From contig CAVUJS010000009.1 in the NCBI GenBank assembly GCA_963741885.1, forward strand, positions 54,636 through 118,635: 64,000 nucleotides of DNA, written 5' to 3'. The translations under genes and the position numbers were made by a program. The notes beneath the pieces were generated by a model. The model was not told the origin of the DNA and ran no database searches. It was given only the letters and a program-made list of their open reading frames with translations. Origin of the DNA: an uncultured Chloroflexia bacterium (lineage in GTDB: Bacteria; Chloroflexota; Anaerolineae; Anaerolineales; Anaerolineaceae). Positions within the stretch are counted from its first letter, which is position 1; the number at the start of each line of letters is the position of its first letter. Of the stretch, positions 2,925-56,955 are shown piece after piece.

Positions 2925-3195
2925 ATCCCACGGTTCGCCGCCCTTGCTCCTTGCGCTGGGCAACCTATCTTTGCGGCAAACGCGGTTCGCCGCCCTTGCT
3001 CCTTGCGCTGGGCAACCTATCTTTGCGGCGAACCGTACCTTCTCCAAAATTTGCAAAGCCAAATTTTAGAGAAGGATGTCTTATTCTGCCAATCAAGTCC
3101 CATAGCCAGCACATTTTTACATACAAAAAGACACCCTTCTCCATCAAACGCCGCTTTTGCGTTTGATGGAGAAGGGCCGGGGATGAGGAGTTCTT
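2925..3195. repeat. Cluster of mosaic hairpin repeat modules (BOX/BIME-like)
   Basis: Two tandem copies of CGGTTCGCCGCCCTTGCTCCTTGCGCTGGGCAACCTATCTTTGCGGC (2931-2977, 2983-3029, closed by GAACCG). Then hairpins CCTTCTCCAAAATTTG...CAAATTTTAGAGAAGG and CCCTTCTCCATCAAACGC...GCGTTTGATGGAGAAGGG plus CCGGGGATGAGG. The same modules recur at 9.7, 11.2, 31.2, 51.9 and 56.8 kb. Confidence 0.85.
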
Positions 3196-6086: not shown

Positions 6087-6132
6087 GGTAACACATATCT
6101 TACGCCGCCCTTTGTGGCTGGCTGGCAGCGGC

Positions 6133-8493
6133 TTACTTCAACAGCCCCGCGTCCTTCAGGTTCTGCATGAACGTCTCGCCGTCGGGGATGCCTTCTTTGA
6201 CGAACAGGCCGGGCTGGCCCATGGGGGCGGGGACGGTCACCCACTGGCCCTGGTAGGGCGAGCGGTAGGCTTTGCCGCTCCACACGTGCAGCCAGTTTCC
6301 GGCGGGCAGGTAGACGCGCACCGTATTTTTGCCGGGGTCGAGCACCGGGGCGACTAAGATATCCGGGCCGACCAGGAACTCGCTGGTCAGGTTGTAGGTC
6401 TTGGGGTCATCCGGGTAGTTGAGGAACAGCGGGCGGTCGAGGGGCAGGCCGGTTTCGGCGGCGTTTTGCACCAGGCGCTTGCGCAGGAAGCCCCAGGCGG
6501 CGTAGACGCGCGCGAAGCGGTCGAACTGCGCCAGGGTCTGCTCATCCGAGTAGAACTGGGCGTTCTGGGCGGGGGTGTTGCCCTCGTGGGTGCGGTAGAG
6601 GGTGGTGAAGGCGGAAAGCTCCATCCAGCGCATGAGCAGTTCTTTGCTGCGCGAGATATGCAGCAGCGGGTTGTTGATGCCGGTGTAGCCGCCGATATCC
6701 GAGTGGTTGAGGCTGAAGCCCGACAGCCCGCCCGAAAGCAGCCCGGTCAGCGCCGAGCGCAGGCCGTCGTTGGCGTCCCAGGTGGTGAGCTGGTCGCCTT
6801 CCCACATCAAGGTGGTATAGGCGGGGGAGCGAGTGAAGGCTGCGCGGGTGAAAAAGACGTACTGATCGCCATCTGGCAGGGCATCGATCAGTTCGCGGTT
6901 GAGCTGGGCCCAGGCCACCGGGTATGCATTATGGAAATCCGCGCCAGTTTGGCCGTTGGCCAGCTGCGCGTCGTAGGGCAGGGCCTCGCCGAAGTCTGCC
7001 ATCCAGCCAGACGCGCCGATGCCGACGATTTCATCCTTCAGCACGCCTTCATACCAGGCGCGCGCGGCGGGGTTGGTCAGGTCGACCAGCCCCGCGGAGA
7101 AGTCCGTGTTCTGGATCAGGTAGGGCGAGCCGTCCGGGCGTTTGACCAGGTACCCGGCCGTGTTGGCCTCGGCGTACAGGTTGCGCTTGAGGTTGGGCTT
7201 CAGGCCAGCGAGGTCCGCCAGGAAGGGGCTGGCATACACCAGCAGGCGCACGTTGTCTTGCGCCAGGTCCGCGCGCAGCTGGTCCCAGCCAGGGTAGCGC
7301 GAATCGTCCAGCTGCCAGTTCCACCATAACTGCTTGCCAAAACTGGTGCTGCGCTGGCCGACCCAATCCTGCAGCCAGAAGGCGCTGAGCGGCGTGCCCA
7401 GCGCCTTGAGCTTCGCATAGACATCCCGCACGGACTGCGTGCCGCCCTGCATGCCCACCACTGCCCCAGAGAGGATCCAATCCGGCAGGGGCCGCATGCG
7501 CCCGGCATACCGGGTATACTCGCTGACCAGCGCTTCAGGGTCGCGCCCATAGAGGATGCGCCCGGCGAAGGTGGGCGCAAGCGCCGAGACCTGCACGCGG
7601 TCGGGCTGGCGCAGGTCGAAGACGCTGTAGGTGGTGCTGGTCAGGAACAGCGAGCGCAGGCGCGAGGTGAGGTAGTGCGGCACGCTGGCGTAGCTGGTAA
7701 AGGCGCTGCCGCCCGAATGCGCTGCCAGATCCACCAGCGCGGTCACCGGCTGCTGCCCGCGCCCGATGCCCTGCTCGGAGATCCAGACCGGCACGCGCTT
7801 GCCCTTCAGGTCAAAGTAGCTGAACTGCTCACCAAAGCCAAAAAAGTGTTCGTCAGCGTCGGAGGCGTAGGAGAGGTAGGCAGAAACGGTAGCTTTGCCC
7901 TGGTCGAGCACCTGATCCGGGGTGACGGTCAGGTCGAACCCGAGCTGGTTGTCGCTCACCGCCTGGAATTTCAGGGAATAGTCCATGCTGCGCCCGCCGC
8001 CGCAGTCGAGCGTGCCGCGCAGGGTGATCGCGCCGCCGGATACAGCCGCGCTGTCGAGGGTCTGGTTGGCGCAGGTTTGCTCGCGCCGGACGGCGAAATC
8101 GTACGAGCCGCGCGCTTCCTGCACCTGCACCTGGCTCTGGGTCGCGCCGACAAAGGCCTGCCCGTGCAGGGTGTACCACAGCCACTGCCCCGGCGCGGCG
8201 CGGTGGGTGATATACAGGCGCGGGCCGGGGTAGCCGCCCGGGGTGTCCTCGCCGATGGTCGAGAGGCTGAGGGTGAAGTTGCCGGTGGTGTAATTGCGCA
8301 GGTCATGCCCTGGGAAAGCGCTCTCAGAAACGCTCAGCTTCCCGTCCACCGGGCGCTGGTTAATCTGGCGCGCGATCGGCCCGCCCAACAGCGCCACCAA
8401 CCCGCCGATGAGCAGGATGAGGGGAAAGATTAGCAAGTAGCGTTTGCGGAAATGCATCATGAAAATGAGCCAGCCCGGAAGTGTTGCAGGCAT
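6133..8493 (-). CDS. Glycoside hydrolase family 31 (YihQ-like alpha-glycosidase), N-terminal membrane anchor
   Basis: WLQDWVGQRSTSFGKQLWWNW and GWMADFGEALPYD motifs are typical of the YihQ-like GH31 clade. Start is uncertain (8493 or ATG at 8460). Confidence 0.85.
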   Translation of the reverse strand: MPATLPGWLIFMMHFRKRYLLIFPLILLIGGLVALLGGPIARQINQRPVDGKLSVSESAFPGHDLRNYTTGNFTLSLSTIGEDTPGGYPGPRLYITHRAAPGQWLWYTLHGQAFVGATQSQVQVQEARGSYDFAVRREQTCANQTLDSAAVSGGAITLRGTLDCGGGRSMDYSLKFQAVSDNQLGFDLTVTPDQVLDQGKATVSAYLSYASDADEHFFGFGEQFSYFDLKGKRVPVWISEQGIGRGQQPVTALVDLAAHSGGSAFTSYASVPHYLTSRLRSLFLTSTTYSVFDLRQPDRVQVSALAPTFAGRILYGRDPEALVSEYTRYAGRMRPLPDWILSGAVVGMQGGTQSVRDVYAKLKALGTPLSAFWLQDWVGQRSTSFGKQLWWNWQLDDSRYPGWDQLRADLAQDNVRLLVYASPFLADLAGLKPNLKRNLYAEANTAGYLVKRPDGSPYLIQNTDFSAGLVDLTNPAARAWYEGVLKDEIVGIGASGWMADFGEALPYDAQLANGQTGADFHNAYPVAWAQLNRELIDALPDGDQYVFFTRAAFTRSPAYTTLMWEGDQLTTWDANDGLRSALTGLLSGGLSGFSLNHSDIGGYTGINNPLLHISRSKELLMRWMELSAFTTLYRTHEGNTPAQNAQFYSDEQTLAQFDRFARVYAAWGFLRKRLVQNAAETGLPLDRPLFLNYPDDPKTYNLTSEFLVGPDILVAPVLDPGKNTVRVYLPAGNWLHVWSGKAYRSPYQGQWVTVPAPMGQPGLFVKEGIPDGETFMQNLKDAGLLK

Positions 8494-26047: not shown

Positions 26048-26076
26048 TTGACAAATTCTAAAATTTCGCCATAATT
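26048..26076 (+). promoter_or_regulatory. Sigma70-like promoter candidate for the 26110-31106 operon
   Basis: TTGACA (26048-26053), 17-nt spacer, ATAATT (26071-26076), within a ~150-bp strongly AT-rich divergent intergenic region. Confidence 0.4.
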
Positions 26077-26109: not shown

Positions 26110-28368
26110 TTGACGATAGGAGTATCGGTACCCGTGGACGCGGCGATTTTTTGCCCTAACTGCCAGCGCTATCTTGGGCTCCAAATGGAGTGCGAGACGT
26201 GTCATTGGGTGCGCCCAGCCCGGCCGGCTGCACCGGTGAGCCACGTGCATTGGAAAGTCCATCTCAGCGAGGCCGGCAGTTTTACCGATTCTACCATTTA
26301 CCTGACGCAGATCACTTCCAACGGCAAGCTATTATTTGTTCCCACCGCTGGCGGGGAGCTTGCGGCTTTAAACCCGGCGGATGGCCTGGAAAAATGGCGG
26401 CGCGCGCTGCACCCTGAGCATCTGCTGCGCGTGCAGTCCGCGGCGCTGTGGGGGGATGTGCTGCTGCTGGGCGCAGAGAACCTGGCCAGCCTGCCAGCGA
26501 ACGAGCGCTGCCTGCTGGCCTGGGATGCTGAAACAGGCGCGGAACTGTGGTCCTGGTCCGCACCGGGGGATAATCTATCGGTGCCGGTTGTGGCAGGCGA
26601 TGTGGCCTATTTCACCTCTTCGGAACCGATCTTGTTCGCGCTGGATTTGCCCTCCCGCAGCCTGCGCTGGCAGGTCCCAGCGGTGACCTGGTCGCCGGAT
26701 GCCCCGGTAGTGGGCAGCGGGGTGGTGGTCGTACCGGCGCGCGGGTCCAGCGTGGCGGCTTTTGCCGAGGGCGATGGTCACCGGCTGTGGTCGTTTACCG
26801 CGGACGAACCCGAAAGCGAGGTGCTGCACCTGCACCCGGCGCTTTCCGCGGACACGGCTTTTCTGGCCGGGTGGGATAAGCGCCTCTATGCGGTAGATTT
26901 AACCAGCGGGAAACTGCGCTGGCGCTTCACCGCGCCGCGCGGGATTACCGCGCCGCCGGTGCTGGCCGGTGAGCGGCTGCTGGTGGCGGTCAAAGACTTG
27001 CGCGAAAAGAAGAATGCCAACAAACCTGGTTACAGCCTGTGCGCGCTGGACCAGGCGACGGGTGACCTGCTGTGGAAGTTCTCGACCGAGCGCCATATTT
27101 ATACCCGGCCGCAGGTGGTTGGCGATACGGTGCTGTTCGGCGCGGATGACCGCCGGCTGCATATCCTGGACCTGGCCAGCGGGGAGGAGTTGTGGCAGTT
27201 TCCGGCGGCGGGCAAGGTGCAGGTCAGCCCGTGCGTGTTGGATGGCAAGATTTTCTTTGGCCAGCAGGACTACACGATCTACGCTTTGCAGTGGCAGGAG
27301 GAAGCCCAGCAGCCGCTGGAACGCAAGGACCTGCTGGCGCTGGAAGAAGGCGCGCAGCTGGCATTAGATGGGCAGTTCGCCGCGGCCGGGCAGTGGTACC
27401 GCGCGCAGGGTGATTACCAGCACGCGGCGGCGTTGTTTATGCAAGCTAACCAGCCCCAGGAGGCCGCCGAGGACTATCTGCACCTGGGCGACCTGGAGCG
27501 CCTGCTGGAGGTGCGCCGCCAGGTGGGCGACCGGACCGGCGAAGCGGAGGCCCTGGCGCTGCTGGGCAAACACGCCGAGGCGGCCCGCTTATTTGAGGCC
27601 AGCGGGCAGCTGGACCGGGCGGTGCGCGAATACAGCCAGGCCGGGCGCACGGGCTACGCCGCCATGCTGCTGTGGCAGAACGGCCGCCGGAAAGAGGCGG
27701 CAGATTTGTATCATTCGATCAACCAGGATGATAAGGCTGCTGAGGTATTGGTCGAGGACGGGCGTTTTGCCGAAGCGGCAGAAATCTACCTGCGCATTCA
27801 AAAGCCCGAGGTGGCAGCCGGGGTGCTGGCCCAGGGCGGGCTGCTCGAGCGCGCCGCGGACCTGTACGCGCAAACCGAACACACCCGGCTGGCGGCGGAG
27901 CTTTACACAAAGGCTGGTCTGAGCGACCCCGCGCTGCGCCTGTATGAGTCACTGGCAGACTGGAGCAAAGTGGCGGAAGTGGCTGAACAAAGCGGTGATC
28001 TGCTGCGCCTGGCCAAGGCCCTGACCCAGCTGGGCCAGTTGGAGCGCGCCGCGCAGGTGTATCAGCGCGCCGGGCAGCTGGATACCAGCATCGAGCTGTA
28101 CCTGCAGTTGGGCAAGTGGGAACGGGTGGCGGCGCTGGCGGGTGAGTTGGGGGATGGCGAGCGGCAGGGTTTCGCTTTCAGCCAATTGGGTTTGATGACC
28201 CAGGCCGGGGAGGCTTACGAACAGGCCGCGCGCCAGGCGCAGCAGGAGCACCCCGAAGACACGGAGCGCATCGCCAGTCTGTATGAGGCGGCGGCGAAGT
28301 ATTACGGCGAAGACGATGACTGGCTGCGCCAGAGCGCCTGTTACAACAAAGTTTGTCAGATTCTGTAA
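26110..28368 (+). CDS. Zn-ribbon + PQQ/BamB-type beta-propeller + alpha-helical repeat (TPR-like solenoid) protein
   Basis: CPNCQ...CETCHW ribbon. Repeated LxAxDxxTGxxxWxF propeller blades (LLAWDAETGAELWSW, LYAVDLTSGKLRWRF, LCALDQATGDLLWKF, LHILDLASGEELWQF). The C-terminal ~330 aa are paired-helix repeats (G..EAA.LY...). Start is uncertain (TTG 26110 or GTG 26134 after AGGAG). Confidence 0.8.
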   Translation: MTIGVSVPVDAAIFCPNCQRYLGLQMECETCHWVRPARPAAPVSHVHWKVHLSEAGSFTDSTIYLTQITSNGKLLFVPTAGGELAALNPADGLEKWRRALHPEHLLRVQSAALWGDVLLLGAENLASLPANERCLLAWDAETGAELWSWSAPGDNLSVPVVAGDVAYFTSSEPILFALDLPSRSLRWQVPAVTWSPDAPVVGSGVVVVPARGSSVAAFAEGDGHRLWSFTADEPESEVLHLHPALSADTAFLAGWDKRLYAVDLTSGKLRWRFTAPRGITAPPVLAGERLLVAVKDLREKKNANKPGYSLCALDQATGDLLWKFSTERHIYTRPQVVGDTVLFGADDRRLHILDLASGEELWQFPAAGKVQVSPCVLDGKIFFGQQDYTIYALQWQEEAQQPLERKDLLALEEGAQLALDGQFAAAGQWYRAQGDYQHAAALFMQANQPQEAAEDYLHLGDLERLLEVRRQVGDRTGEAEALALLGKHAEAARLFEASGQLDRAVREYSQAGRTGYAAMLLWQNGRRKEAADLYHSINQDDKAAEVLVEDGRFAEAAEIYLRIQKPEVAAGVLAQGGLLERAADLYAQTEHTRLAAELYTKAGLSDPALRLYESLADWSKVAEVAEQSGDLLRLAKALTQLGQLERAAQVYQRAGQLDTSIELYLQLGKWERVAALAGELGDGERQGFAFSQLGLMTQAGEAYEQAARQAQQEHPEDTERIASLYEAAAKYYGEDDDWLRQSACYNKVCQIL

Positions 28369-28984
28369 ATGGCCTAACCTAAAACTGCGCTTTGAACTGG
28401 AAACGCAGTTCTTCGAGGGCGAGTACAACTTGATGAACCTGGTGGTGCTAAATACCGGTTTCAGCCCGGCGCAAAACATCCGCGTGAACAGCATCAGCCC
28501 GAAATTCCGCCTGGATGAAGGCGAATCGCAGATCTCGCAGCGCTTGCTGGGCGTGCAGCAGGATAAATCGCTGCGCTTGCTGCTGCTGCCGCGGCCAGAT
28601 GTATTGGGCATGGTGCTGCTGCAGGTCAACGTGCTGTACGAAGATCCGCAGGGCGGCGAACACCAGTCCATCTTTGAGCAAACTGTGAAAGTGTTTGGCC
28701 GGGATGAAAAACTGCGCGCGGCGGAAGGGCTGCCAGATGAAGCGACCCCGCTCACCGGCGCGGAGGCCATGAATATCTCGCGGCTGCGGCGCGGGTTGAT
28801 CGAATATTTTAATGAAGATGAGCTGGAATCGCTGTGCTTTGACCTGCAGGTGGACCATGAATCGCTGCCGGGCGAGACGAAAGCGGGAAAAGCACGCGAG
28901 TTAATTCGTTACCTGGGGCGGCGCGGGCGGCTGCGCGAGCTGGAAGATATGGTTCACCAGCTGCGCCCCAATGTGAACTGGTAG
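28283..28984 (+). CDS. Beta-sandwich-like region + C-terminal effector-associated-domain (EAD)-like helical module
   Basis: C-terminal LIEYFNEDELESLCFDLQVDHESLPGETKAGKARELIRYLGRRGRLRELEDMVHQLRPNVNW is homologous to the CHAT protein C-terminus. Start unresolved: ATG 28283 overlaps the upstream gene by 86 nt, ATG 28433 truncates the fold, and the frame is open and protein-like from 28370. Confidence 0.7.
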   Translation: MRRRRSITAKTMTGCARAPVTTKFVRFCKWPNLKLRFELETQFFEGEYNLMNLVVLNTGFSPAQNIRVNSISPKFRLDEGESQISQRLLGVQQDKSLRLLLLPRPDVLGMVLLQVNVLYEDPQGGEHQSIFEQTVKVFGRDEKLRAAEGLPDEATPLTGAEAMNISRLRRGLIEYFNEDELESLCFDLQVDHESLPGETKAGKARELIRYLGRRGRLRELEDMVHQLRPNVNW

Positions 28985-29027
28985 TGGGGAGTTTCCCTGA
29001 ACCGGTTCAGGAGGAAGGAAGGTAATT

Positions 29028-31106
29028 ATGGCTGAACAAGAAATCAAGACCCTGGGGCGCTATGTGATCCAGGCGGAGCTGGGCAAAGGTGGCTTCGCAG
29101 TGGTCTACCAGGCCCTGGATCCGAACCTGGAGCGGGTGGTCGCCCTCAAAGTGATGCACCCCATGCTGCTCAGCGATCCTTCCTTCGCGCAGCGTTTTCG
29201 GCGCGAGGCCCGGGCGCTGGCGGCGCTGCGGCACCCCAATATCATCACTGTCTATGAGGTGAGCGAGGCGGATGGCCGCCTGTTTATCGCCATGGAAATG
29301 GCCAGCGGGCCAAGCCTGGCGGGGTATATCACCGAACACGGGCGCGTATCCTGGAATGAGACGCTGCGCCTGATGCAGCCGGTATGTTCGGCGCTGGCCT
29401 ACGCGCACGAGCAGGGCATCGTGCACCGCGACCTGAAACCGGCTAACATCATGCTGGACCAGGAGCGCGGCCCGCTGCTGACCGACTTTGGCCTGGCGCG
29501 TTTAATCAGCGCGAGCAGCGCCAGCACCAGTCTGACCTCCACCGGCGGAATTCTGGGCACCCCGGCCTACATCGCCCCCGAGGTGTGGGAGTTTGACACA
29601 GCCGGACCGGCGGCGGATATTTACGCGCTGGGCTGCATCCTGTACGAAATGCTCACCGGGCAGCTGCTCTTCGCCGGGCAGACGCCCATGCAGATTCTGC
29701 GCGCGCATGATCGCGGCCCGCAGTTCCCCGCAGCCTGGCCGGAAGATGTGCCGCAGGGTATTGGGGCAGTGCTGGGGCGCGCCCTGGCTCGCAAACCGGA
29801 AGAACGCTATGCCAATCCCGGCGAGCTGTGGCGCGCGCTGGATGACCTGGACGCGGAGGACCGCCTGGAGCGCGAACGGGCCGAAAAGGCTGCCGTGGTG
29901 CAGCCCTGGCGGGAGGAGTTTGAGGCGGCGCTAAAGGGCGGCGAATGGCGGCTGGCGCGCATGGCCTTAGGCCGCTGGCAGGCGGTTTACGCCGAGGACC
30001 CCGACCTGCTGGCAGCGCGCAACCGCCTGGATAAGCTACAGCATGAAACGGAGGAACAGCAGCAGCGCCAACAGGCGGAACTGGAGCACCAGGAACAGGC
30101 GCAGCTGGAACAAGAACGCCAGGCGGCCCTGCGGATGCAGGAGACAGAGCGCCAGGCGCGGGAGGCTGCCGCGCAGCACGATCGAGAGGTTGAACGCCTC
30201 CGGCAACCGGCGAAAAGCGATAAGCCTGCTCAACCCCAGCCCCGGCCTGCCCGGTCGGGCGCTGCGCCGGTCACTGGGCCAACCGTTGTCCCGATCCAAC
30301 CGGAAGGGTTCCAGCCACCAGCCCCATTCGGCATCGTGCAGGCGGGGATCATTCTGCTGTCGTTGATTTCGGCAGCATTTACACTTTCGGCAAGCAGCGG
30401 CAGCGGGCTGGAGACGGCGATTGTGCTCTCCTACCCGGTGCTGGCGCTGCTGCTGTTCCTCCCGCGCGGGGTGCGCCGGGTGGTACGGGTCATTTATCTG
30501 TTGTATGCTTTACTGGGAAGCGGGGTCTTAATTATTACACTGCTGCAAGATCCTTCGAGCAGTTATGCCGGGCAGTACCTGGTGTTGGCATTTCTATTGG
30601 CAGGCCTGGTGGTACTTTTATGGCTCGATCGGGCACGTGAGCGCGGGCCAGCCCTGCTGAAAGAGGCCGTGGAAAAACCGGTCCAAAGCGCAGCTCAACC
30701 TGCCGGAGTGAACTGGGCCGCTACGGGCGAACCAATGAACCGCATCAGCTCAGCGAATGTTTTGAACATCGCGCAAATATTAATGATCCTGACCAGCCTG
30801 GCGATGTTTTATAATCCTGTTTCCAAAGTATTCGAAAGCTACTACAACTACTGGAGTTGGCCAATTCTCGGTCATCTAATTTTATTTTTCCTGGTGCTTT
30901 CGCTGACCTACAAAATTCCCAACCGCCAGCTGGTTCGCAGCCTGACAATCGCTTACCTGATATTCCTTGAATTCACTTTATACATCAATTACGATTACTT
31001 ATTCAACTTTTGGTTACCGGTTATCTTGCTCGCCTTGCTGTGGGTCGACCGCCGACGCGACCAGGTGTTGGCCCGCACGGACGTCTACCCTCCAAAGGCC
31101 GGGTAG
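29028..31106 (+). CDS. Hanks-type Ser/Thr protein kinase with Gln/Glu coiled coil and C-terminal 8-TM (2 x 4 TM) module
   Basis: GGAGGAAGGAAGG RBS. LGKGGFAVVY, VALK, HRDLKPANIM, DFGLAR, GTPAYIAPE. Then QQQRQQAELEHQEQAQLEQERQ. Two 4-TM units end in LLWLDRARER and LLWVDRRRDQ. Confidence 0.9.
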   Translation: MAEQEIKTLGRYVIQAELGKGGFAVVYQALDPNLERVVALKVMHPMLLSDPSFAQRFRREARALAALRHPNIITVYEVSEADGRLFIAMEMASGPSLAGYITEHGRVSWNETLRLMQPVCSALAYAHEQGIVHRDLKPANIMLDQERGPLLTDFGLARLISASSASTSLTSTGGILGTPAYIAPEVWEFDTAGPAADIYALGCILYEMLTGQLLFAGQTPMQILRAHDRGPQFPAAWPEDVPQGIGAVLGRALARKPEERYANPGELWRALDDLDAEDRLERERAEKAAVVQPWREEFEAALKGGEWRLARMALGRWQAVYAEDPDLLAARNRLDKLQHETEEQQQRQQAELEHQEQAQLEQERQAALRMQETERQAREAAAQHDREVERLRQPAKSDKPAQPQPRPARSGAAPVTGPTVVPIQPEGFQPPAPFGIVQAGIILLSLISAAFTLSASSGSGLETAIVLSYPVLALLLFLPRGVRRVVRVIYLLYALLGSGVLIITLLQDPSSSYAGQYLVLAFLLAGLVVLLWLDRARERGPALLKEAVEKPVQSAAQPAGVNWAATGEPMNRISSANVLNIAQILMILTSLAMFYNPVSKVFESYYNYWSWPILGHLILFFLVLSLTYKIPNRQLVRSLTIAYLIFLEFTLYINYDYLFNFWLPVILLALLWVDRRRDQVLARTDVYPPKAG

Positions 31107-31178
31107 AGCCGGCGGCATAAGAAAGCCGGCGGCATAAGAAAGCCGGCGGCATAAGAAAGCCGGCGGCATAAGAAAGCC
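31107..31178. repeat. Perfect 17-bp tandem repeat x4.2 (AGCCGGCGGCATAAGAA)
   Basis: Starts immediately after the kinase stop codon. The unit shares CCGGCGGCATAA with the 5' arm of the family A repeat. Confidence 0.95.
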
Positions 31179-31445
31179 TCATCCCGCGGTTCGCCGCTCT
31201 TGCTCCTTGCGTTGGGCAACCTATCCTTGCGGTGAACCGTCCCTTCTCCATCAAACGCAAGAGCGGCGTTTGATAGAGAAGGGTGTCTTTTTGCAAATCA
31301 GCATAGGCTGGCCAGGGAACTTTTTTTGCAATAAGTCACCCTTCTCTAAAATTTGGCTTTGCAAATTTTGGAGAAGGGCCGGGGATGAGGTATTCTTGTT
31401 TTGCGTTTGATGGAGCAAGAGCGGCGAACCGCGGGATGAGGTGGT
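31177..31445. repeat. Cluster of mosaic hairpin repeat modules between the convergent operons
   Basis: CGGTTCGCCGCTCTTGCTCCTTGCGTTGGGCAACCTATCCTTGCGG, CCCTTCTCCATCAAACGC.../...GTTTGATAGAGAAGGG, CCCTTCTCTAAAATTTGG...CAAATTTTGGAGAAGGGCCGGGGATGAGG, and an inverted GCGGCGAACCGCGGGATGAGG. Confidence 0.85.
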
Positions 31446-31523
31446 GTTCTTTCCCCGCCATTTCCACAGAAAATCCCTTTGTTGCCTTTGCTATAGAAGT
31501 CCGGCAGCTGGGGTGGGAGCGGA

Positions 31524-32864
31524 TTAAAATTCCAGGTTGGGACGCTCGGCGCGCACTGCGGCGGCCAGTTCCGCCAGGCGGCCGCGGCTGGTGAAGTACT
31601 GGAGCATGGCGCGGGCTTTGGCCGGTTTGACCTGCCCGCGCAGCAGTTCCCAATCCACACCCAGGGTAAAGCACAGGGCTTCCAGGTCCTCCAGGGTGAA
31701 GGCTTCGCCGCTGAGCACATGATACAGGCGCACGGGGTCGATGGGCGCGGCTGAATTGGGGGGCCGGTTACTGGCTGCGGAGGGGCCGGGTTGCGCCTGC
31801 GGGCTGGCGGGAGCCCATAACTGCCCGCTTTTCAAGCTCATGAACAGCACCGGCGCGGCTTCATCGGGCTGGCCCTGGATGGCGCGCCGGGCGATGGAGA
31901 CGGCCCGATCGATACAGCCGTCCTGGCGCAGGGCCTGGAACAGCGGCGGCAGGAACAATTCAGCGGAGGGGAAGCTCAATGCGCCGTGCATGGCCAGCAC
32001 CGCCGGGATGCCTGCCGCGACCAGGCGCGGGCCTAATGCGCCCAACATCTCCGGGCTGCCCTGCCCGGCGCTCTCGCACACCACCAGGATCGCCAGGCGG
32101 GGCAGGTTGAGCGTGCCGGTCAGGCGGTGGGCCAGGTCGGCGGCGGAAACGCGCGCGGCGCTGCCCTGCTCGTCCTCCAGCAGCAGCCAGGCGCTGCCGG
32201 CGATCAGCTTGCCGTGACATACCAGGTAGAGCACCTCCTTTCCGGGGATGCTGGCGGCCAGCCGGTTGAGCGTGCAGTGCTCTGATGCGCTGCCGGGCAG
32301 GAAATCCAGGCTTATGCCAGCCAGGCCCGCCCGGGCGCGCGCCTGTTCGGCGGTTGGATCAATGGCAGCCAGGCCGTACTCGCGAGCATTGCGCGGCGCG
32401 GCGACCGCCGCGAGGGCGGTCAGGGCTGTTTTGGGCGCGGGCAGGGCGGCGCTGGCCGCGCCGGGCAGGAAGCGCGAGAATAGGATGTCCTCGCGCGTGG
32501 TCAATCGCTCTGCCTGGCCGGGAAGGCAGAGCAGTTCCCAACGCAGGCTGTGCAGGGGTTCCGCACCTGGGCCGAGCAGCAGGCGCAGCCGCACAGGACC
32601 CGGCTGCGGGCGGCCCTGGGCTATGCCGCGCGCAGCTGCCAGGGTCTCGCGCAGGGCTGGGTCCGCAAACAGCATCTTACTGAGCGCATCCCCGTATGCA
32701 GCGGGGCTGCCCGCCTCGCCATTCAACAACAGCGGGTCAATATTCACCGGGAACGGCCCGCGGTAGAGGATACTGTCCGCGCCGTAATCCAGGCGCACTT
32801 CCGCCTGGTAGGCATCCCCTGCACCGCGCAGAGCCAGTTCAAAATCCACATCTGCCAGCGCCAT
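31524..32864 (-). CDS. CHAT-domain (caspase-fold) protease with C-terminal EAD-like module
   Basis: His in VLYLVCHGKL (His217, 32216..32214) and Cys in LAILVVCESAG (Cys263, 32078..32076) form the caspase/CHAT dyad context. The last ~70 aa (31739..31527) match the C-terminus of the 28984 gene product. AGGAG RBS before ATG 32864. Confidence 0.85.
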   Translation of the reverse strand: MALADVDFELALRGAGDAYQAEVRLDYGADSILYRGPFPVNIDPLLLNGEAGSPAAYGDALSKMLFADPALRETLAAARGIAQGRPQPGPVRLRLLLGPGAEPLHSLRWELLCLPGQAERLTTREDILFSRFLPGAASAALPAPKTALTALAAVAAPRNAREYGLAAIDPTAEQARARAGLAGISLDFLPGSASEHCTLNRLAASIPGKEVLYLVCHGKLIAGSAWLLLEDEQGSAARVSAADLAHRLTGTLNLPRLAILVVCESAGQGSPEMLGALGPRLVAAGIPAVLAMHGALSFPSAELFLPPLFQALRQDGCIDRAVSIARRAIQGQPDEAAPVLFMSLKSGQLWAPASPQAQPGPSAASNRPPNSAAPIDPVRLYHVLSGEAFTLEDLEALCFTLGVDWELLRGQVKPAKARAMLQYFTSRGRLAELAAAVRAERPNLEF

Positions 32865-32881: not shown

Positions 32882-32920
32882 AAAAAGGAGCTGGTCAAAA
32901 CGCGCGTTTTGGCCAGCTCC
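32882..32920 (-). terminator. Intercistronic terminator/attenuator-like hairpin between the trypco2-like gene and the CHAT gene
   Basis: Minus strand GGAGCTGGCCAAAACGCG/CGCGTTTTGACCAGCTCC (17-bp stem, one mismatch) starts right after the stop codon and is followed by TTTTT, then the AGGAG RBS of the CHAT gene. Confidence 0.6.
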
Positions 32921-33331
32921 TTAGATTATTCTTTGCCGGTCTGCTTTTTTCCAGCCGGGCTGGTTTTTTTCTTTTTCTTCCTCTTCCTCTTTGTCTTTGT
33001 CTTCATGCCAGCGCAGCATCACGTTGAAGTTGGCTTCGACCCCGCCGCGCGAGATCACCAACCCGCCCACTTCCGCGGAAGCTTTCAGGCCAAAGTTAAC
33101 TTGCAGTTCCTGAGGCGCGGGCTCGCCGCTTTCGCGCATGTGATTGACCAGGCTGGTCGCCAGCTTGCGAATCGTCCCGACCGATTCGGCAAAGTTAATC
33201 CCGGGCTGTTCCGCCGGATGCCCGCCGGGCTTGCCAGGCGGAATCAGGCCGCTTGCGCCGCGCGGAACCTCGGTGGTCTCCAGGTAGACGGCTGTGCCGT
33301 CCTCGAGTTCAAATTTGACATAGGTTGCCAT
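32921..33331 (-). CDS. Trypco2-like (CU044_2847-family-like) small protein with acidic/Lys-rich tail
   Basis: GGGAGG 7 nt before ATG 33331. MATYVKFELEDGTAVYLETTE ... LQVNFGLKASAEVGGLVISRGGVEANFNVMLRW fits my recollection of the trypsin-co-occurring domain 2 pattern. Tail is DKDKEEEEEKEK. Confidence 0.65.
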   Translation of the reverse strand: MATYVKFELEDGTAVYLETTEVPRGASGLIPPGKPGGHPAEQPGINFAESVGTIRKLATSLVNHMRESGEPAPQELQVNFGLKASAEVGGLVISRGGVEANFNVMLRWHEDKDKEEEEEKEKNQPGWKKADRQRII

Positions 33332-33439
33332 GTTGTAACCTCCCTTGTTGGTTATGCGGGCAGCGCCAGCGCCCCCCGCGAAATTCACACAGATATTCCT
33401 GTGGATTTGTTGACTGAATTCTAAGTGAGAAGGGGGGTG

Positions 33440-34435
33440 TTAGTCAACCTCTTCCAGACCCTCGAACCCACTGATTGCGTTTAAGGCATTGCCAGTCTCG
33501 AATTTGCTCCACAGGTCATTGGCCAGGGCCTGCGCGTTTTGCCTGATTTTGTACCGCATGAAATACTGGCATAAGCGCTCGACATCCCGCATAAAGAGCG
33601 CGGGCGCGTCTGGGTTGCGCCGCGGATCGACCGCTTGCGGGAAATCAATGATTTTAAAGGTATTTTCCCAATACAGGATGTTATAGGCCGAAAAGTCGGC
33701 ATGGACACAGTGACAGGCCAGCATAATGGCCAGGTTATCGACCAGTTTCTCAAAGATGAGCCGCGCTTCACCTGCCTCCAGGGTGACCTGGTTGAGGGTG
33801 GGCGCGGGGACGGTGGCCTCTCCGAGGTATTCCATCAAAATCACATTGCTGCCATGCGCCAGGGGTTTGGGCACATCGGCCCCGGCCTGATGCAGCTTTT
33901 GCAGCGTCTGATACTCTGCCTCGAGCCAGGTGTTATGGCGCAGTTCCTGCCCATAGCGCGTGTTTTTCTGCATGGCCAGCGCCTCGCGCCGGCTGCGGAC
34001 GGCCTTGCCATGTTCATCGATCATATCGCGGCCCTGGCGGTAGCGTGCGTCATTGCGCAGGTTGCGGAACATGCGCGGGCGGTACACTTTCGCGGCGATC
34101 AAATCCAGCCCGGTGGAGGGGTGCGCCGCGCAGCAGTAGACGTTGGCCTCTTTGCCGCCTTTTGCTTTCCATAGGATATCCGTAATGAGCTGGTTGTTGT
34201 AGAACTCTTCCAGGTTGCTGATCAGCCAGAAATGTTCATGCTCGGCGGGTTGAAAAGAGGGGCTAAAGTTTTGCTGAACATCAACCGGGGCTTTATCCGC
34301 ATGTTCCACCAGATCGGCCAGGAAGCGGGCTTGTTTTTCGCGCTGACCCAGGCGGCGGTTTTTGCGCTGAATGCGCTTGGCAGGGGTCGGGTCAAAATCA
34401 GCGTTCAGATAGTTATCAAGATCGTTCTTTCGCAT
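33440..34435 (-). CDS. RIO-type atypical serine protein kinase/ATPase
   Basis: GGKEANVYCC (flexible-loop region), LIAAKVYR (Lys), HCVHADFSAYNILY (catalytic loop) and KIIDFPQAV (metal-binding Asp) follow the RIO1/RIO2 order. Confidence 0.8.
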   Translation of the reverse strand: MRKNDLDNYLNADFDPTPAKRIQRKNRRLGQREKQARFLADLVEHADKAPVDVQQNFSPSFQPAEHEHFWLISNLEEFYNNQLITDILWKAKGGKEANVYCCAAHPSTGLDLIAAKVYRPRMFRNLRNDARYRQGRDMIDEHGKAVRSRREALAMQKNTRYGQELRHNTWLEAEYQTLQKLHQAGADVPKPLAHGSNVILMEYLGEATVPAPTLNQVTLEAGEARLIFEKLVDNLAIMLACHCVHADFSAYNILYWENTFKIIDFPQAVDPRRNPDAPALFMRDVERLCQYFMRYKIRQNAQALANDLWSKFETGNALNAISGFEGLEEVD

Positions 34436-50403: not shown

Positions 50404-51884
50404 CATAGGCGCTAACTTATGGTTGTCCATTAAGCTGCACAAAGCATTGCCAATTGAGAGCGAGCCACCGCAAGCTGCTGACGGCGTTTTCTGGGAGAGC
50501 CACACAGGTACCTTTCGAGCAGGGCGAGCTTCCCCAAAACCTGTTGCCAACTGGGCAGTTCGCCAATGACCCAAGACAGGAGGGTGTGGATCAAGTAGGT
50601 GTCCAGGCGCCAAATGCTGATCGGGCGATCCAGGTCGTCAAACAAATCCGGTACCTGTTGGGCGATTTCCGAGCGCAAACCATCGACCAAAATGGCGGCC
50701 AGGAGTTTGGTCAGCAAGTAGGTTTGCGCCAGGTCATTATTCTGAGCGCGCAGGTGATCCAGGTCCAACAAGCTTTTCATGCGTTTGAAATACAGCTCAA
50801 TTTGCCAGCGCCAGCGATACAGCGCCAAGACTTGTTCGCTAGACCAGCCTTGGGCCGGTAAGTTAGTGAGGAGGATGACAAACCCGACGGCGTACAGGTT
50901 CTTCTCCATCGGTTGATGTTTTTTCTTGCGGCTGTTCTTGCGCGCGCGTTCACGGGCTTTTTCCGCTTTTTCGGGTGGCAAGGGACAGGCCACCAGGCGC
51001 ACCGGCTGCAGCCCTTGCGCGCCAGGCAGCCACACCTGCGTTTCCGCCGGGTCAGTCGCTCCTTGCGGAAAGGTAGCTTTGAGCCAGGCGATGATGTCGA
51101 ACTTCTCTCCCGCTTGGCTATAGACCGGCATGGTATTCCACTGCTCGCGCGTGACAAACTTGGCCCCGGCCTGCAAGGCCTTTTCCAGGCCACGGGTGCG
51201 GGTATAACCGCTATCCGCCAGATAGATGTCCTGGTCGCTCAGCGAAAAGTTGCCAAAGCCTTCGCCGCCATGTTCATCGGTGAGGATCACTTGATCAATG
51301 CGCATCTGGTCGAGATCCATCGACACATGCAGCCGCCAATCGGTGCCCTGGCTCTTGGGTTTGGAGATCACGCTGGCATCCAGGATTTTGAGATGCAGCG
51401 CCGCTTGGGACGGGAATTGGATGCCGTTCTGCTGTAGCAGTTGCACCGCCAGTGCGCCCAGCCAGGCTGGCATGCCTTGTAGGCGTCGCATCAGATCCAC
51501 ATCCGAGATATTGCAGATCTCTAACAGGGTCGCCATCAGCGCGGTTTGCCGTAATGACCAATCCGGCAAGCTATACAGAAACGCCAATTGTAAGAGCGCT
51601 TCCGCGCTGCGGATCTCACGGCAGCGCAGCAAGGCCGCATGTTGCTTGGCGCTTTGATCTAGATCGTCTGGCAGTCTTTGTTTCACCCTTTCCCATTTCT
51701 CATTCAGCAACGGATGACTGCTCGTGGCTGTTGCCGCTACGGGTTGATCGAAGATTTGAACTGTGCTACACTCCACCTTGACCTCCTGGGTTTGATTTTG
51801 GTTTTGAGCAGCTTAATCTTACCCTAGAGGTCATTTTTGTCGTATCTGTTTGTTTCCGTTCAGAACCATAAGTTAGCGCCTATG
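50404..51884 (-). mobile_element. IS4-family insertion sequence (1481 bp) with 21-bp perfect TIRs and an 11-bp target-site duplication
   Basis: TIR CATAGGCGCTAACTTATGGTT at 50404-50424, with its reverse complement at 51864-51884. Flanking CCCCCGGCCCC at 50393-50403 and 51885-51895. Confidence 0.9.
50430..51776 (-). CDS. IS4-family DDE transposase
   Basis: 448 aa. YRWRWQIELYFKRMK (Y-2-R-3-E-6-K signature of the IS4 family). Fills the IS between the TIRs. Confidence 0.9.
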   Translation of the reverse strand: MECSTVQIFDQPVAATATSSHPLLNEKWERVKQRLPDDLDQSAKQHAALLRCREIRSAEALLQLAFLYSLPDWSLRQTALMATLLEICNISDVDLMRRLQGMPAWLGALAVQLLQQNGIQFPSQAALHLKILDASVISKPKSQGTDWRLHVSMDLDQMRIDQVILTDEHGGEGFGNFSLSDQDIYLADSGYTRTRGLEKALQAGAKFVTREQWNTMPVYSQAGEKFDIIAWLKATFPQGATDPAETQVWLPGAQGLQPVRLVACPLPPEKAEKARERARKNSRKKKHQPMEKNLYAVGFVILLTNLPAQGWSSEQVLALYRWRWQIELYFKRMKSLLDLDHLRAQNNDLAQTYLLTKLLAAILVDGLRSEIAQQVPDLFDDLDRPISIWRLDTYLIHTLLSWVIGELPSWQQVLGKLALLERYLCGSPRKRRQQLAVARSQLAMLCAA

Positions 51885-52140
51885 CCCCCGGCCCCTCTCC
51901 ATTTTCGCCAAAGCTCGAAAACGGAGGGGTGCCTTTTAATGGTGCGAAAATTCGCCCGATTTCTGCCTCCCCTCTCCGAAACCTGCCGGTTTTGCAGGTT
52001 TTGGAGAGGGGATCGAGAGGTGAGGATTTTGTTTGTTACGCTGAGCATAACCTCCATACGGCGAACGCGGTTCGCCGCAAGGAACGGTTGCCCAACGCAA
52101 GGAGAAAGGGCGGCGAACCGTGGGGTGAGGATTTTATGCG
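51885..52140. repeat. Mosaic hairpin repeat cluster (right half of the element interrupted by the IS)
   Basis: CTCTCCATTTTCGCCAAAGCTCGAAAACGGAGGGG, CCCCTCTCCGAAACCTGCCGGTTTTGCAGGTTTTGGAGAGGGG, CGGTTCGCCGCAAGGAACGGTTGCCCAACGCAAGGAGAAAGGGCGGCGAACCG, GGGTGAGGATTTT. Collinear with the uninterrupted copy at 56715..56955. Confidence 0.85.
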
Positions 52141-52292: not shown

Positions 52293-53393
52293 ATGGCGAA
52301 TAATGAGAGTTTGAATAAGGCAAATATAGCAAAGAAAGACGAGTTTTATACGCAGCTGTCGGATATTGAGGCAGAAATGCGCCATTACAAAGAACAGTTT
52401 CGCGGCAAGGTCATTTTCTGCAACTGCGACGACCCATATGAGAGCAACTTTTTCAAATATTTTGCGATGAACTTTAATTTTTTGGGTCTAAAAAAACTGA
52501 TCGCTACCAGTTATTCCGGGTCTCCGGTCGCGACCCAACAACTGTCCTTGTTTGATGTTAAGGATTTGGCGGTGGAAAGCACCGATGACAGGCACCCGTA
52601 TAAAGTCGAGATTACTGAAGTAAATGACGAAAACGCGGACGGCGCGGTTGGCCTGGCGGACGTGGCGTATTTGCTCAAAAACAAAAAAAATGCTTTAGCG
52701 TTACTGGAAGATGGCGGCGATTTCCGCTCGGCTGAATGTATCGCACTTGCTGAAAGAAGCGGATATCGTAGTCGACTAATCCACCATTTTCACTGTTCCG
52801 GGAATATGTGGCGCAGTTAGATGGAATACGAAAAAGCAGTTTATCATTATTGGTAATACAAATGCTTTAACATATAAAGAAATATTTAAACTAATAAAGA
52901 GGACAATAAGATTTGGCTATGGCAAATTTCCATAGTGGGAATGTATTTTTATGTTCCAGATTATTACCCGATAAATAGCGATAAGATTGAAGAGTGGACG
53001 AAAGATGGTTAGGGTTTCGTACATCTTGTTGGTTTACTAACCTATGAGTTTGAAGAACGACACGAAAATTATTACATCTATATAAGCATTACACATCCGA
53101 AGAATACCCTCGCTATATTAATTACGACGCAATTGAAGTGCTCAAAAACCGCCGAAATACCCTGCGACTATGATGGTGAAATGGGCGTTCCCATTACATT
53201 CCTTGATAAATACAATCCGGAACAATTTGAAATTATAGGTTCAAGTATCTTTCTCGGAAAACCGATGTCTGAAATTGCCCCGAAAGGAACCTATATGGCG
53301 GGGGGCGTAAGGTTCTATCTTCCAAATGGGGATGGCACTTACAAACGTCTTTATGATCGGATTGTGATTAAGCGGAAAGGCGCTCGACAATGA
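52293..53393 (+). pseudogene. Decayed N6-adenine DNA methyltransferase (EcoRI-methylase-like family), multiple frameshifts and stops
   Basis: The N-terminal 150 aa are intact (KKDEFYTQ, VIFCNCDDPYESNFFKYF). NPPFSLFREYVAQL, IIIGNTNALTYKEIFKLIK, YFYVPDYYPINSDKIEEW, WFTNL, YPRYINYDAIEVLKN and GVPITFLDKYNPEQFEIIG are all present but spread over all three frames, with at least 6 frame changes. Confidence 0.8.
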
Positions 53394-54478
53394 AAATCGA
53401 ATTGCAAGAAATCACCGTCCGCGAAGTCGCGGAAAAGTACGTAGATAACGCCGAAGAGGGCGTGGTGGGCTACCACAGCAAACTGAATATCCGCCCGAAA
53501 TACCAGCGCGAGTTCGTCTATGACGAGAAAAAGCGTAACGCGGTGATGGATACCATCCGCAACGGTTTTCCCCTCAATGTCATCTACTGGGCGAAAAATG
53601 AAGATGGCACGTTTGAAGTGTTAGACGGTCAGCAAAGGACGATCAGTTTTTGCCAGTACGTTTGCGGCGATTTCTCCATCGACAACCGCGCTTTCCACAA
53701 CCTGACGAACACCGAAAAAGAACAGATCCTCAACTATCCGCTGATGGTCTATTTCTGCGAGGGCAACGACAAGGAAAAGTTAGACTGGTTCAAGATCATC
53801 AATATTGCTGGCGAAAAACTCACCGACCAGGAACTGCGCAACGCGGTATATACCGGACCCTGGCTGACACACGCAAAATCGATCTTCAGTAAAAGCAACT
53901 GCGCGGCTTATCTTTTATCCAAAGACTATGTGAGTGGCTCTCCGATCCGGCAAGAAATTCTCGAAACAGCATTAAGTTGGATCTCAAATGGCGAAATAGA
54001 GAAGTACATGTCTATGCACCAGCACGACCCGAACGCGAATGAGTTGTGGATGTATTACCGGAGCGTCATAGATTGGGTGCAATTAACCTTCCCTGAGTAC
54101 CGTAAAGAAATGAAAGGCATCGAATGGGGCGGTTTGTACGATCAATTCAAAGATGAATTGTTTGACACCCACAAGTTGGAGCAGGAAATACAGTCCCTGA
54201 TGCTGGATGATGACGTCACAAAAAAACGGGGAATTTATCCTTATGTATTAAACCGCGACGAGAAATATCTCAATCTTCGCGCCTTTACCCCGAATCAAAA
54301 GCGGGAAGCGTATGAAAGGCAAAAAGGCATCTGTCCAAGATGCGGACCTGAGAAACACTACGCACTGGAAGAAATGGAAGCTGACCACATTACTCCGTGG
54401 CATGAAGGCGGGAAAACCATCGCGGAGAACTGCCAGTTTCTTTGCAAGAGACACAATCGGGAAAAATCTGGAAAATAA
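53390..54478 (+). CDS. DUF262 (ParB/Srx-fold, GmrSD N-domain-like) + C-terminal HNH nuclease
   Basis: RPKYQREFVY and LDGQQRT (DUF262 motifs). C-terminal CPRCG...ADHITPWHEGGKTIAENCQFLCKRHNREK (HNH). ATGA overlap with the end of the methylase pseudogene. AT-rich codon usage. Confidence 0.85.
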   Translation: MKIELQEITVREVAEKYVDNAEEGVVGYHSKLNIRPKYQREFVYDEKKRNAVMDTIRNGFPLNVIYWAKNEDGTFEVLDGQQRTISFCQYVCGDFSIDNRAFHNLTNTEKEQILNYPLMVYFCEGNDKEKLDWFKIINIAGEKLTDQELRNAVYTGPWLTHAKSIFSKSNCAAYLLSKDYVSGSPIRQEILETALSWISNGEIEKYMSMHQHDPNANELWMYYRSVIDWVQLTFPEYRKEMKGIEWGGLYDQFKDELFDTHKLEQEIQSLMLDDDVTKKRGIYPYVLNRDEKYLNLRAFTPNQKREAYERQKGICPRCGPEKHYALEEMEADHITPWHEGGKTIAENCQFLCKRHNREKSGK

Positions 54479-56714: not shown

Positions 56715-56955
56715 CTCCGAAAATAGTTTCCGGTTTTACAAAAAATCCTCACCCCGCGGTTCGCCGCAAGGATAGGTTGCCCGACGCAAGAAGAAAGAGC
56801 GGCGAACCGTGTCCTCTCCATTTTCGCCAAAGCCCGAAAACGGAGAGGGGTGTCTTTTTAATGGCGCGAAAATTTGACCGATTTCTGCCTCCCCTCTCCG
56901 AAAACGGGCGATTTTTCCGTTTTTGGAGAGGGGAACGAGGGGTGAGGACTTTATG
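56715..56955. repeat. Mosaic hairpin repeat cluster (uninterrupted reference copy)
   Basis: TCCGGTTTTACAAAAAATCCTCACCCC + CGGTTCGCCGC...GCGGCGAACCG + CTCTCCATTTTCGCC...AAAACGGAGAGGGG + CCCCTCTCCGAAAACGGGCG...CGTTTTTGGAGAGGGG + GGGTGAGGAC. Confidence 0.85.

Follow-up and report, generated by a model that had tools for sequence, protein, structure and literature searches.

The stretch of DNA considered here (the window) comprises 64,000 nucleotides of contig CAVUJS010000009.1 (positions 54,636 to 118,635, forward strand; assembly GCA_963741885.1), from an uncultured Chloroflexia bacterium assigned to the Anaerolineaceae. An earlier note, made from the sequence of this stretch alone, had reported that two otherwise unrelated proteins encoded on opposite strands end in the same small helical module. 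The plus-strand protein is a large repeat protein, regarded here as a sensor or scaffold, whose gene is followed by that of a Ser/Thr protein kinase. The minus-strand protein is a caspase-like protease of the CHAT family, encoded convergently with the kinase and preceded on its own strand by a gene of the Trypco1/Pepco pore-toxin family. The module common to the two proteins belongs to the effector-associated domains (EAD), and its distribution suggests how the products of these four genes could act together.

The shared C-terminal module and the proteins that carry it

The intervals 28772-28981 (+) and 31527-31739 (-) translate to the two peptides that had been quoted in the note. Where some 26 identities over 59 ungapped positions had been counted by hand, BLASTP gives 28 over 60 (47%), with 0 gaps and E = 6e-18; when one segment was shuffled 100,000 times, the highest ungapped identity count was 15, against the 28 observed. 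The description of the two proteins as otherwise unrelated is borne out, since whole-protein BLASTP confines their similarity to the last 60 residues (898-957 of the plus-strand protein, once repaired as described below, and 387-446 of the minus-strand protein). A tblastn search with both modules found these two copies and no third in the window. Both lie, as described, at the extreme C-terminus after a linker. In the CHAT protein this is a Pro/Ala/Ser-rich segment (residues ~351-376). In the plus-strand protein it is disordered, with predicted local distance difference test (pLDDT) scores below 50 at tail residues 118-130 of the AlphaFold2 (AF2) model, and its length differs between aligned orthologues. 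The DNA of the two modules has diverged, as had also been claimed: over 180 aligned bases, nucleotide identity is 57% overall and 42% at third codon positions, which argues for an old duplication and for protein similarity kept by selection.

In Pfam, the two termini are assigned to PF19960 (effector-associated domain 7, EAD7) with scores of 78.5 and 65.9 bits, the cut-off being 32. The plus-strand copy (28772..28984 including the stop codon) is matched with E = 3.3e-22 within its open reading frame (ORF) and 2.6e-23 when taken alone. The minus-strand copy (31527..31739), at the C-terminal end of the CHAT protein, is matched with E = 2.9e-18 (1.1e-19 alone). To judge from these profile matches, the shared module is EAD7, an already published family of predicted small, non-enzymatic, all-alpha adaptors. 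Four helices are modelled by AF2 in each copy. For the protease-borne copy (71 residues), the model was built on an alignment of 19 sequences; it is compact (mean pLDDT 96.7) and agrees with the bundle of four to six helices that had been expected.

The note had further proposed an adaptor for EAD or death-like homotypic recruitment. The EAD part of this proposal, in essence the interpretation already put forward by Kaur et al. (2020), stands, given the PF19960 matches and the published role of the family; the structural part does not, and "death-like" holds as a functional analogy. Foldseek returned no significant PDB match for the EAD7 model, the nominal best being CARD and Death domains (E 1.4-8.7, template modelling score 0.25-0.40), and sequence-profile searches of the PDB with EAD7 likewise returned no significant structure. 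In Pfam, the isolated modules match no bDLD, Death or helix-turn-helix (HTH) family even at E <= 10. Membership of the Death fold, a six-helix Greek key, was rejected in view of the four helices and of the non-significant Foldseek and profile searches.

EAD7 is widespread: a search of 1.84 billion proteins with its profile yields 9,942 cluster representatives (E <= 1e-3), and many family members (among P0097-P0243) carry tandem arrays of 2-8 copies. A census of partner domains covering 62 of the 150 best-scoring EAD7-profile proteins identified 56 families. The note had proposed a listing of such partners, with proteases, TIR and NACHT in mind. The domains co-resident with EAD7 include nSTAND1 (17 of the 62 proteins), AAA_16 (11), EAD1 (9), SIR2_2 (6), Roc-COR (5), CHAT (4), TIR (3) and bDLD1 (3), together with LRR and FGE-sulfatase domains, and no DNA-binding family occurs among the 25 commonest. 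The possibility, raised in the note, of a generic HTH domain found without effector partners does not describe this set, in which the partners are domains of conflict systems. The spectrum of STAND, SIR2, TIR, CHAT and similar domains argues instead for an adaptor of such systems. As a separate observation, three of these 62 proteins match PhetRS_B1 (E = 2e-8 at best), and a PDB search with the EAD7 profile gives a weak match to a PheRS beta chain (7by6_B, E = 0.17), which hints at a distant kinship of folds.

The protease gene (31524..32864, -), convergent with the kinase gene, encodes 446 residues organized as CHAT domain, linker and EAD7. The CHAT domain (PF12770, a caspase-like cysteine protease) is matched at residues 56-343 with E = 1.3e-20. 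Its catalytic dyad His217/Cys263, in the contexts C216-H217-G218 and C263-E264-S265-A266, is invariant in 11 orthologues, and by these residues the protease is predicted to be catalytically intact. The CHAT-linker-EAD7 architecture is kept by orthologues P0027-P0038. Another CHAT orthologue, P0039 (467 aa, 56% identity), has a helical module other than EAD7 at its C-terminus. No solved relative was retrieved from the PDB at E <= 0.01 with a profile built from the CHAT-EAD7 orthologues.

The delimitation of the plus-strand gene in the note, as one encoding a 233-aa protein, has to be corrected: that segment is the C-terminal part of a frameshifted gene for about 957 residues. The complete product is predicted to consist of a Zn-ribbon, a PQQ β-propeller, a TPR/solenoid region, a β-sandwich, a linker and EAD7. 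The 5' part of the gene (26110..28368, +) encodes the N-terminal Zn-ribbon (CPNC...CETCHW), the PQQ-type propeller (PQQ_2, E = 5.5e-36) and the TPR/alpha-solenoid (SNAP, TPR_IFT122 and Clathrin-like TPR models). It ends at a premature TAA and is collinear with residues 1-~750 of the single-polypeptide orthologues P0004-P0009 and P0011. The Ig-like β-sandwich and the disordered linker follow at 28367..28771 (+). AF2 strands span tail residues 5-110, and by Foldseek the sandwich resembles those of TRAP-beta, MG and appendage type (E ~1e-6).

The junction, located by tblastn and codon alignment at 28363..28369 (+), reads CTG TAA A and holds one base more than the orthologues. In tblastn with the metagenomic fragment P0002, the matching frame of the window changes from +1 (last base 28362) to +2 (first base 28367), and at 28367 reading resumes in the +1 frame with AAA TGG CCT (KWP). 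In the codon alignment the orthologues have VCQ[FYL]R[RNQ]WPNLK and the window has VCQIL* followed, one base on, by KWPNLK, corresponding to a single insertion at about 28366. Seven orthologues that are single full-length polypeptides, all terminated by EAD7, are retrieved with the repaired 957-aa query (947-999 aa; identity 42-49%, coverage 99%); the related loci L004 and L008 encode an eighth, which has 960 aa. In the source annotation the region is covered by two separate ORFs of 744 aa and 183 aa (P0003 and P0001), the annotated start of the second, ATG 28433 (M23), lying inside the β-sandwich and downstream of its first strand (tail residues 5-11 in the AF2 model). The collinear single-polypeptide orthologues and the mapped junction indicate that these two ORFs are one frameshifted gene. 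The frameshift may be a real mutation or a single-base assembly error, and unless it is the latter the system may be inactivated. A programmed +1 frameshift at CUG UAA A was judged unlikely: there is no Shine-Dalgarno-like stimulator upstream and, by the logic of prfB-type frameshifting, tRNA-Leu on CUG cannot re-pair on UGU.

Two further observations concern the architecture of the sensor (26110-28771). Its TPR region matches models of eukaryote-type coat and intraflagellar transport proteins (TPR_IFT122, TPR_IF140-IFT172, Clathrin, SNAP and WDR35; E 1e-8 to 1e-11), so that the succession of β-propeller, alpha-solenoid and appendage-like sandwich is "protocoatomer-like", here in a bacterium. 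One sensor orthologue (P0012, 947 aa) carries a Zn-ribbon at its end in place of EAD7.

The kinase gene (29028..31106, +) lies directly downstream of the sensor gene. Its product (Pkinase, E = 2.3e-52) possesses all Hanks-type motifs (VALK40, HRD133, DFG153, APE183), followed by a coiled-coil and about eight C-terminal transmembrane (TM) helices (TM segments 431-653). On the minus strand, the Trypco1/Pepco gene (32921..33331) begins with the ATG at 33331, preceded by the ribosome-binding site AAGGGAGG, and lies 56 nt upstream of CHAT-EAD7. Its 136-aa product matches Trypco1 with E = 6.7e-19 (68.7 bits, cut-off 24.6), and the 27-aa C-terminal tail beyond the Pfam match is 67% D/E/K/R with one proline. 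Between the Pepco stop and the CHAT-EAD7 start lies a hairpin with a 17-bp stem and a 4-nt loop (AAGGAGCTGGTCAAAACGCGCGTTTTGGCCAGCTCCTT, 32885-32922), which could attenuate or stabilise the transcript and thereby set the ratio of Pepco to protease.

Related loci and known systems

This gene neighbourhood recurs, in whole or in part, in loci from uncultured organisms that are Anaerolineae-like where they are named. The arrangement of L008 is that of the window: sensor-EAD7, then kinase, then convergent CHAT-EAD7. In L004, from an Anaerolineaceae metagenome-assembled genome, and in L010, which is identical to it, CHAT-EAD7 and sensor-EAD7 are convergent and there is no kinase. CHAT-EAD7 is convergent with an orthologous kinase in L142 and with the SBP-type C-terminus of a kinase in L145, and in L001/2 and L003 sensor-EAD7 is followed by an orthologous kinase (~60% identity over ~355 aa). 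A sensor gene, a kinase gene or both thus adjoin CHAT-EAD7 in five of the seven CHAT-EAD7 loci or locus groups, in the midst of differing flanks. The kinase orthologues next to sensor or CHAT genes in L001/2, L003, L008 and L142 show 54-60% identity, and the kinase ends differently from locus to locus, its C-terminal region consisting of a TM bundle, of TPR repeats or of an SBP domain.

The link between scaffold and protease is expressed most directly by P0010, a sensor orthologue of 1252 aa in which the same propeller-TPR-sandwich body carries a CHAT domain fused after the sandwich, in the place of EAD7. This CHAT domain is 37% identical to that of the window (E = 2e-39). By the classic fusion argument, P0010 points to a direct functional link between scaffold and CHAT.

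Two lineages of EAD7 co-exist: a sensor-type, to which the plus-strand copy belongs, and a protease-type, which includes the copy on the CHAT protein. Mean identity is 53% within the sensor-type and 62% within the protease-type; between the types it is 38% on average and 46% at most, the pair in the window standing at 44% in the family alignment. Lineage-specific residues at five alignment columns (among them E/A44, L/M45, R/S51 and a terminal W/L) and a one-residue indel separate them.

Among 129 loci obtained by scanning genome and metagenome contigs with the CHAT-EAD7 alignment as query, L010 alone contains EAD7, the remainder being CHAT-SIR2 and similar; a hidden Markov model scan for EAD7 over all six-frame ORFs of these 129 loci added nothing. 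The called genes of the related loci include no nucleoside triphosphatase (NTPase) core, save a gene of NB-ARC/BTAD regulator type in L008, about 2.5 kb from the sensor gene and about 8 kb from CHAT-EAD7. Two CHAT-EAD7 loci have neighbours of another kind. In L006 (8635-11368), an NTP_transf_2 gene and toxin-antitoxin pairs come after two tandem CHAT-EAD7 paralogues; in L139, an MBL-fold (metallo-beta-lactamase) hydrolase gene lies 2 kb from CHAT-EAD7 (5571-6803). MBL-fold hydrolases are another class of protease-activated effectors (Evans et al. 2025, 10.1101/2025.11.14.688446).

It has been proposed that EAD copies on a core or sensor and on an effector, often encoded by adjacent genes, couple the two by homotypic interaction, although the genes for additional copies frequently lie at a distance from the core (Kaur et al. 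2020, PMC7159879). EAD7 was assigned to the class that recruits effectors (PMC7159879). Terminal copies on a scaffold and on a nearby effector are found in the window and in L008, L004/L010, L142 and L145, and P0010 provides a case in which the same effector is fused to the core. The present locus resembles the EAD systems of Kaur et al. 2020/2021 in its small all-alpha terminal copies, in combining a scaffold with a peptidase effector encoded by neighbouring genes and in the effector-scaffold fusion found elsewhere. It differs in having no vWA-MoxR-VMAP, iSTAND, GAP1 or STAND core nearby, in a core made up instead of a PQQ-propeller/TPR/β-sandwich protein and a Ser/Thr kinase, and in neighbouring copies that belong to two distinct and stable lineages. 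Neither the combination of propeller-TPR-sandwich-EAD7, kinase and CHAT-EAD7 nor an EAD-coupled Pepco-protease pair appears in the main text of two papers of the Aravind group, and the Pepco preprint (10.1101/2025.11.14.688446) makes no mention of EADs. The module itself is therefore known biology; the combination of genes around it is unusual, NTPase-less and kinase-associated.

Other comparisons are partial. With the Death-fold adaptors (CARD, DD, DED, PYD) and bDLD, EAD7 shares the position of a helical terminal adaptor on a sensor and on a caspase-type protease, and a predicted role in recruitment, but it is modelled with four helices rather than six and has no significant structural or sequence match to them. 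For Pepco (Trypco1/2), the published mechanism is that of a pre-assembled β-barrel which becomes a lethal pore once an associated protease, typically encoded immediately downstream, trims its charged C-terminal tail (Evans et al., 10.1101/2025.11.14.688446). The Trypco1 gene of the window is likewise directly upstream of a protease gene on the same strand, and its product has a charged C-terminal tail. However, the characterised protease is trypsin-like and fused to the STAND sensor Avs4, whereas here a CHAT cysteine protease and its sensor are separate proteins with EAD7 as their sole presumed link; moreover, the tail has a single proline (about 20% proline in the characterised case) and the orthologous loci have no Pepco.

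Beyond the orthologue group, the nearest CHAT domains belong to CHAT-SIR2 fusions from Chloroflexota, Acidobacteriota and Actinomycetota (38-46% identity over residues 1-350), in which a C-terminal SIR2_2 domain stands in place of EAD7 and whose loci contain no EAD7 gene. In TPR-CHAT (Csx29) of the type III-E CRISPR (clustered regularly interspaced short palindromic repeats) "Craspase" and in SAVED-CHAT, the CHAT protease is activated by a sensor complex. The P0010 fusion similarly combines CHAT with TPR repeats, but no close kinship to these proteins is detectable, and there are no CRISPR or CBASS (cyclic oligonucleotide-based antiphage signalling system) genes nearby.

The proposed pathway and its alternatives

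The reading that we favour, with a confidence only a little better than even, is that EAD7 tethers the CHAT protease to the repeat-protein sensor in a split pathway of death or immunity running from sensor through adaptor and protease to pore. The large cytoplasmic scaffold would perceive a trigger, the co-transcribed kinase gating the response or supplying a second input, or else the kinase itself might perceive it. Docking of EAD7 on EAD7 could then gather CHAT on the scaffold and activate it by proximity or oligomerisation. The protease would remove the charged C-terminal tail of Trypco1/Pepco, whose pre-assembled β-barrel would permeabilise the membrane, so that the cell is killed or arrested.

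Several observations weigh against this proposal. Under the published EAD principle, adjacent copies are expected to be most closely related to each other, and the neighbouring EAD7 copies here are not; with two diverged lineages, any contact between them would be heterotypic, between paralogues. In L006 and L139, CHAT-EAD7 occurs with neither sensor nor kinase. Pepco adjoins CHAT-EAD7 in the window only, being absent from the seven other loci or locus groups according to tblastn and the Pfam labels of the neighbours, and it therefore cannot be a general substrate. The roughly 36 largest ORFs of the 64 kb include no STAND, vWA, MoxR, GAP1 or other published NTPase core. PADLOC gives no system-level match for the region and holds no model for the sensor, for Pepco or for the system. 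Finally, the sensor gene is frameshifted in this genome.

A more specific proposal, tentative and on balance doubtful, would turn the first of these points to account. The genes could form a distinct, NTPase-independent and kinase-gated immune or suicide system of the Anaerolineae, in which two co-evolving EAD7 paralogue lineages make up a specific heterotypic pair that recruits CHAT to the propeller-solenoid sensor and triggers the pore toxin.

Among the alternatives, the one that survives best concerns the present organism. If the frameshift is real, the propeller-TPR body is severed from its adaptor and the pairing no longer operates here, an outcome we regard as possible though unlikely. 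The single inserted nucleotide, relative to all orthologues, creates a TAA stop, and there is no long homopolymer at the site; ATG 28433, the next in frame, lies past the first strand of the β-sandwich; and the source annotation likewise has two proteins. Against this, the other genes of the locus are intact and their catalytic residues conserved, and a single-base assembly error is possible in a metagenome-assembled contig. Decay would in any case bear on present activity and not on the identity of the module, and it is compatible with everything else proposed here.

It is also conceivable that the scaffold and CHAT-EAD7 are satellites, each docking on a distant EAD7-bearing nSTAND1/NACHT or VMAP hub and not on each other. 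The prominence of STAND NTPases (nSTAND1, AAA_16) as the commonest EAD7 partners, the remote location often reported for additional EAD copies, the CHAT-EAD7 genes of L006 and L139 with no sensor nearby and the lack of a closest kinship between the two EAD7 lineages would all fit such an arrangement. It is nevertheless rather improbable: the repeated association of sensor or kinase with CHAT-EAD7 amid different flanks and the P0010 fusion favour a direct functional pair, and, the NB-ARC/BTAD gene of L008 apart, neither the window nor the related loci with their 10-kb flanks show an NTPase.

Housekeeping or developmental signalling, with kinase-regulated limited proteolysis on a scaffold and EAD7 as a mere assembly tag, appears quite improbable. 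The flanks do consist of ordinary metabolism and signalling genes with no defence island, the orthologues of sensor, kinase and protease are 42-62% identical and show none of the extreme variability typical of conflict genes, and PADLOC returns no system match. This view has to contend with the Pepco pore-toxin gene directly upstream of the protease, with EAD7 partners elsewhere that are overwhelmingly conflict domains (TIR, SIR2, STAND, bDLD1), with nearest CHAT relatives fused to SIR2-like domains and with the C-terminal sensor region of the kinase, which is swapped between loci. That EAD7 is a generic DNA-binding HTH, or an unrelated small helical domain with no coupling function, is hardly credible and was rejected: the domain is small, basic and helical, contains a KxxKAR motif and has no solved structure for comparison, which might invite that reading, but EAD7 is a specific curated Pfam family with tandem arrays of up to 8 copies, and its partner spectrum of STAND NTPases and effector or signalling domains in the 62 proteins scanned, together with the Pfam scan, speaks against it.

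In the literature, EADs commonly figure as the prokaryotic counterpart of Death-fold adaptors. No experimental proof of homotypic EAD binding was found in the searchable literature, and the locus offers a minimal test case, with two confidently modelled EAD7 modules of about 65 residues on a scaffold and on an apparently intact caspase-like protease. The natural fusion P0010 could serve as a positive control and the adjacent Pepco as a candidate substrate with pore formation or toxicity as readout. The proposed tethering would extend EAD7 coupling to an NTPase-free core, made up of a propeller-solenoid protein together with a Ser/Thr kinase whose sensor ends are exchangeable, and, if confirmed, would widen the definition of "NTP-dependent" conflict systems. 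Should the more specific proposal of a distinct Anaerolineae system be true, it would represent a compact bacterial counterpart of sensor-CARD-caspase-gasdermin signalling and a first tractable case in which an EAD interaction could be tested.

Other features of the window

Directly upstream of Pepco and on the same strand is a gene for a RIO-type atypical kinase (33440-34435, -; RIO1, E = 3.6e-37). No RIO kinase was found by tblastn at the related loci, and the gene is probably unrelated to the system. A promoter consensus scan, the sole basis for the two sites given here, yielded nine sites in the region against 2.6 expected. One promoter-like site (TTGACA-16-CATAAT, 11/12; 26048..26075, +) lies upstream of the sensor gene, another (TTGACT-18-TAGAAT, 10/12; 33418..33447, -) between the RIO kinase gene and Pepco.

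The remaining large ORFs of the window encode two-component and cyclic di-GMP signalling proteins, glycosidases, FtsK, an ABC transporter, a transposase, a GmrSD/HNH protein and others. The DDE transposase (50430-51776, -) and the GmrSD-N/HNH endonuclease, which is type IV restriction-like (53390-54478, +), lie about 20 kb from the EAD7 locus and are the sole other mobile or defence-type genes seen. Single-gene matches in PADLOC link the kinase to many generic PD-T4-6/kinase models and the CHAT protein, weakly and partially, to SAVED_CHAT (3e-8). An Rfam scan detected no RNA families in the window.

The spacer of 417 nt between the convergent kinase and CHAT-EAD7 genes is rich in repeats. A perfect tandem repeat of 17 nt (AGCCGGCGGCATAAGAA, 4.2 copies; 31107-31178) begins at the base after the kinase stop, and nested inverted repeats follow, for example 31274-31297 with 31325-31348 (92% complementarity). 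The spacer also holds one copy of a dispersed repeat of about 45 nt (GGTTCGCCGCYCTTGCTCCTTGCGYTGGGCAACCTATCYTTGCGG), of which the window has five or six copies against none expected by chance (2932-2976, 2984-3028, 31188-31232, 52075-52119 (-) and 56764-56808 (-), with a partial inverted copy at 31412-31428 (-)). This element looks like a REP (repetitive extragenic palindromic) or MITE-like (miniature inverted-repeat transposable element) genomic element.

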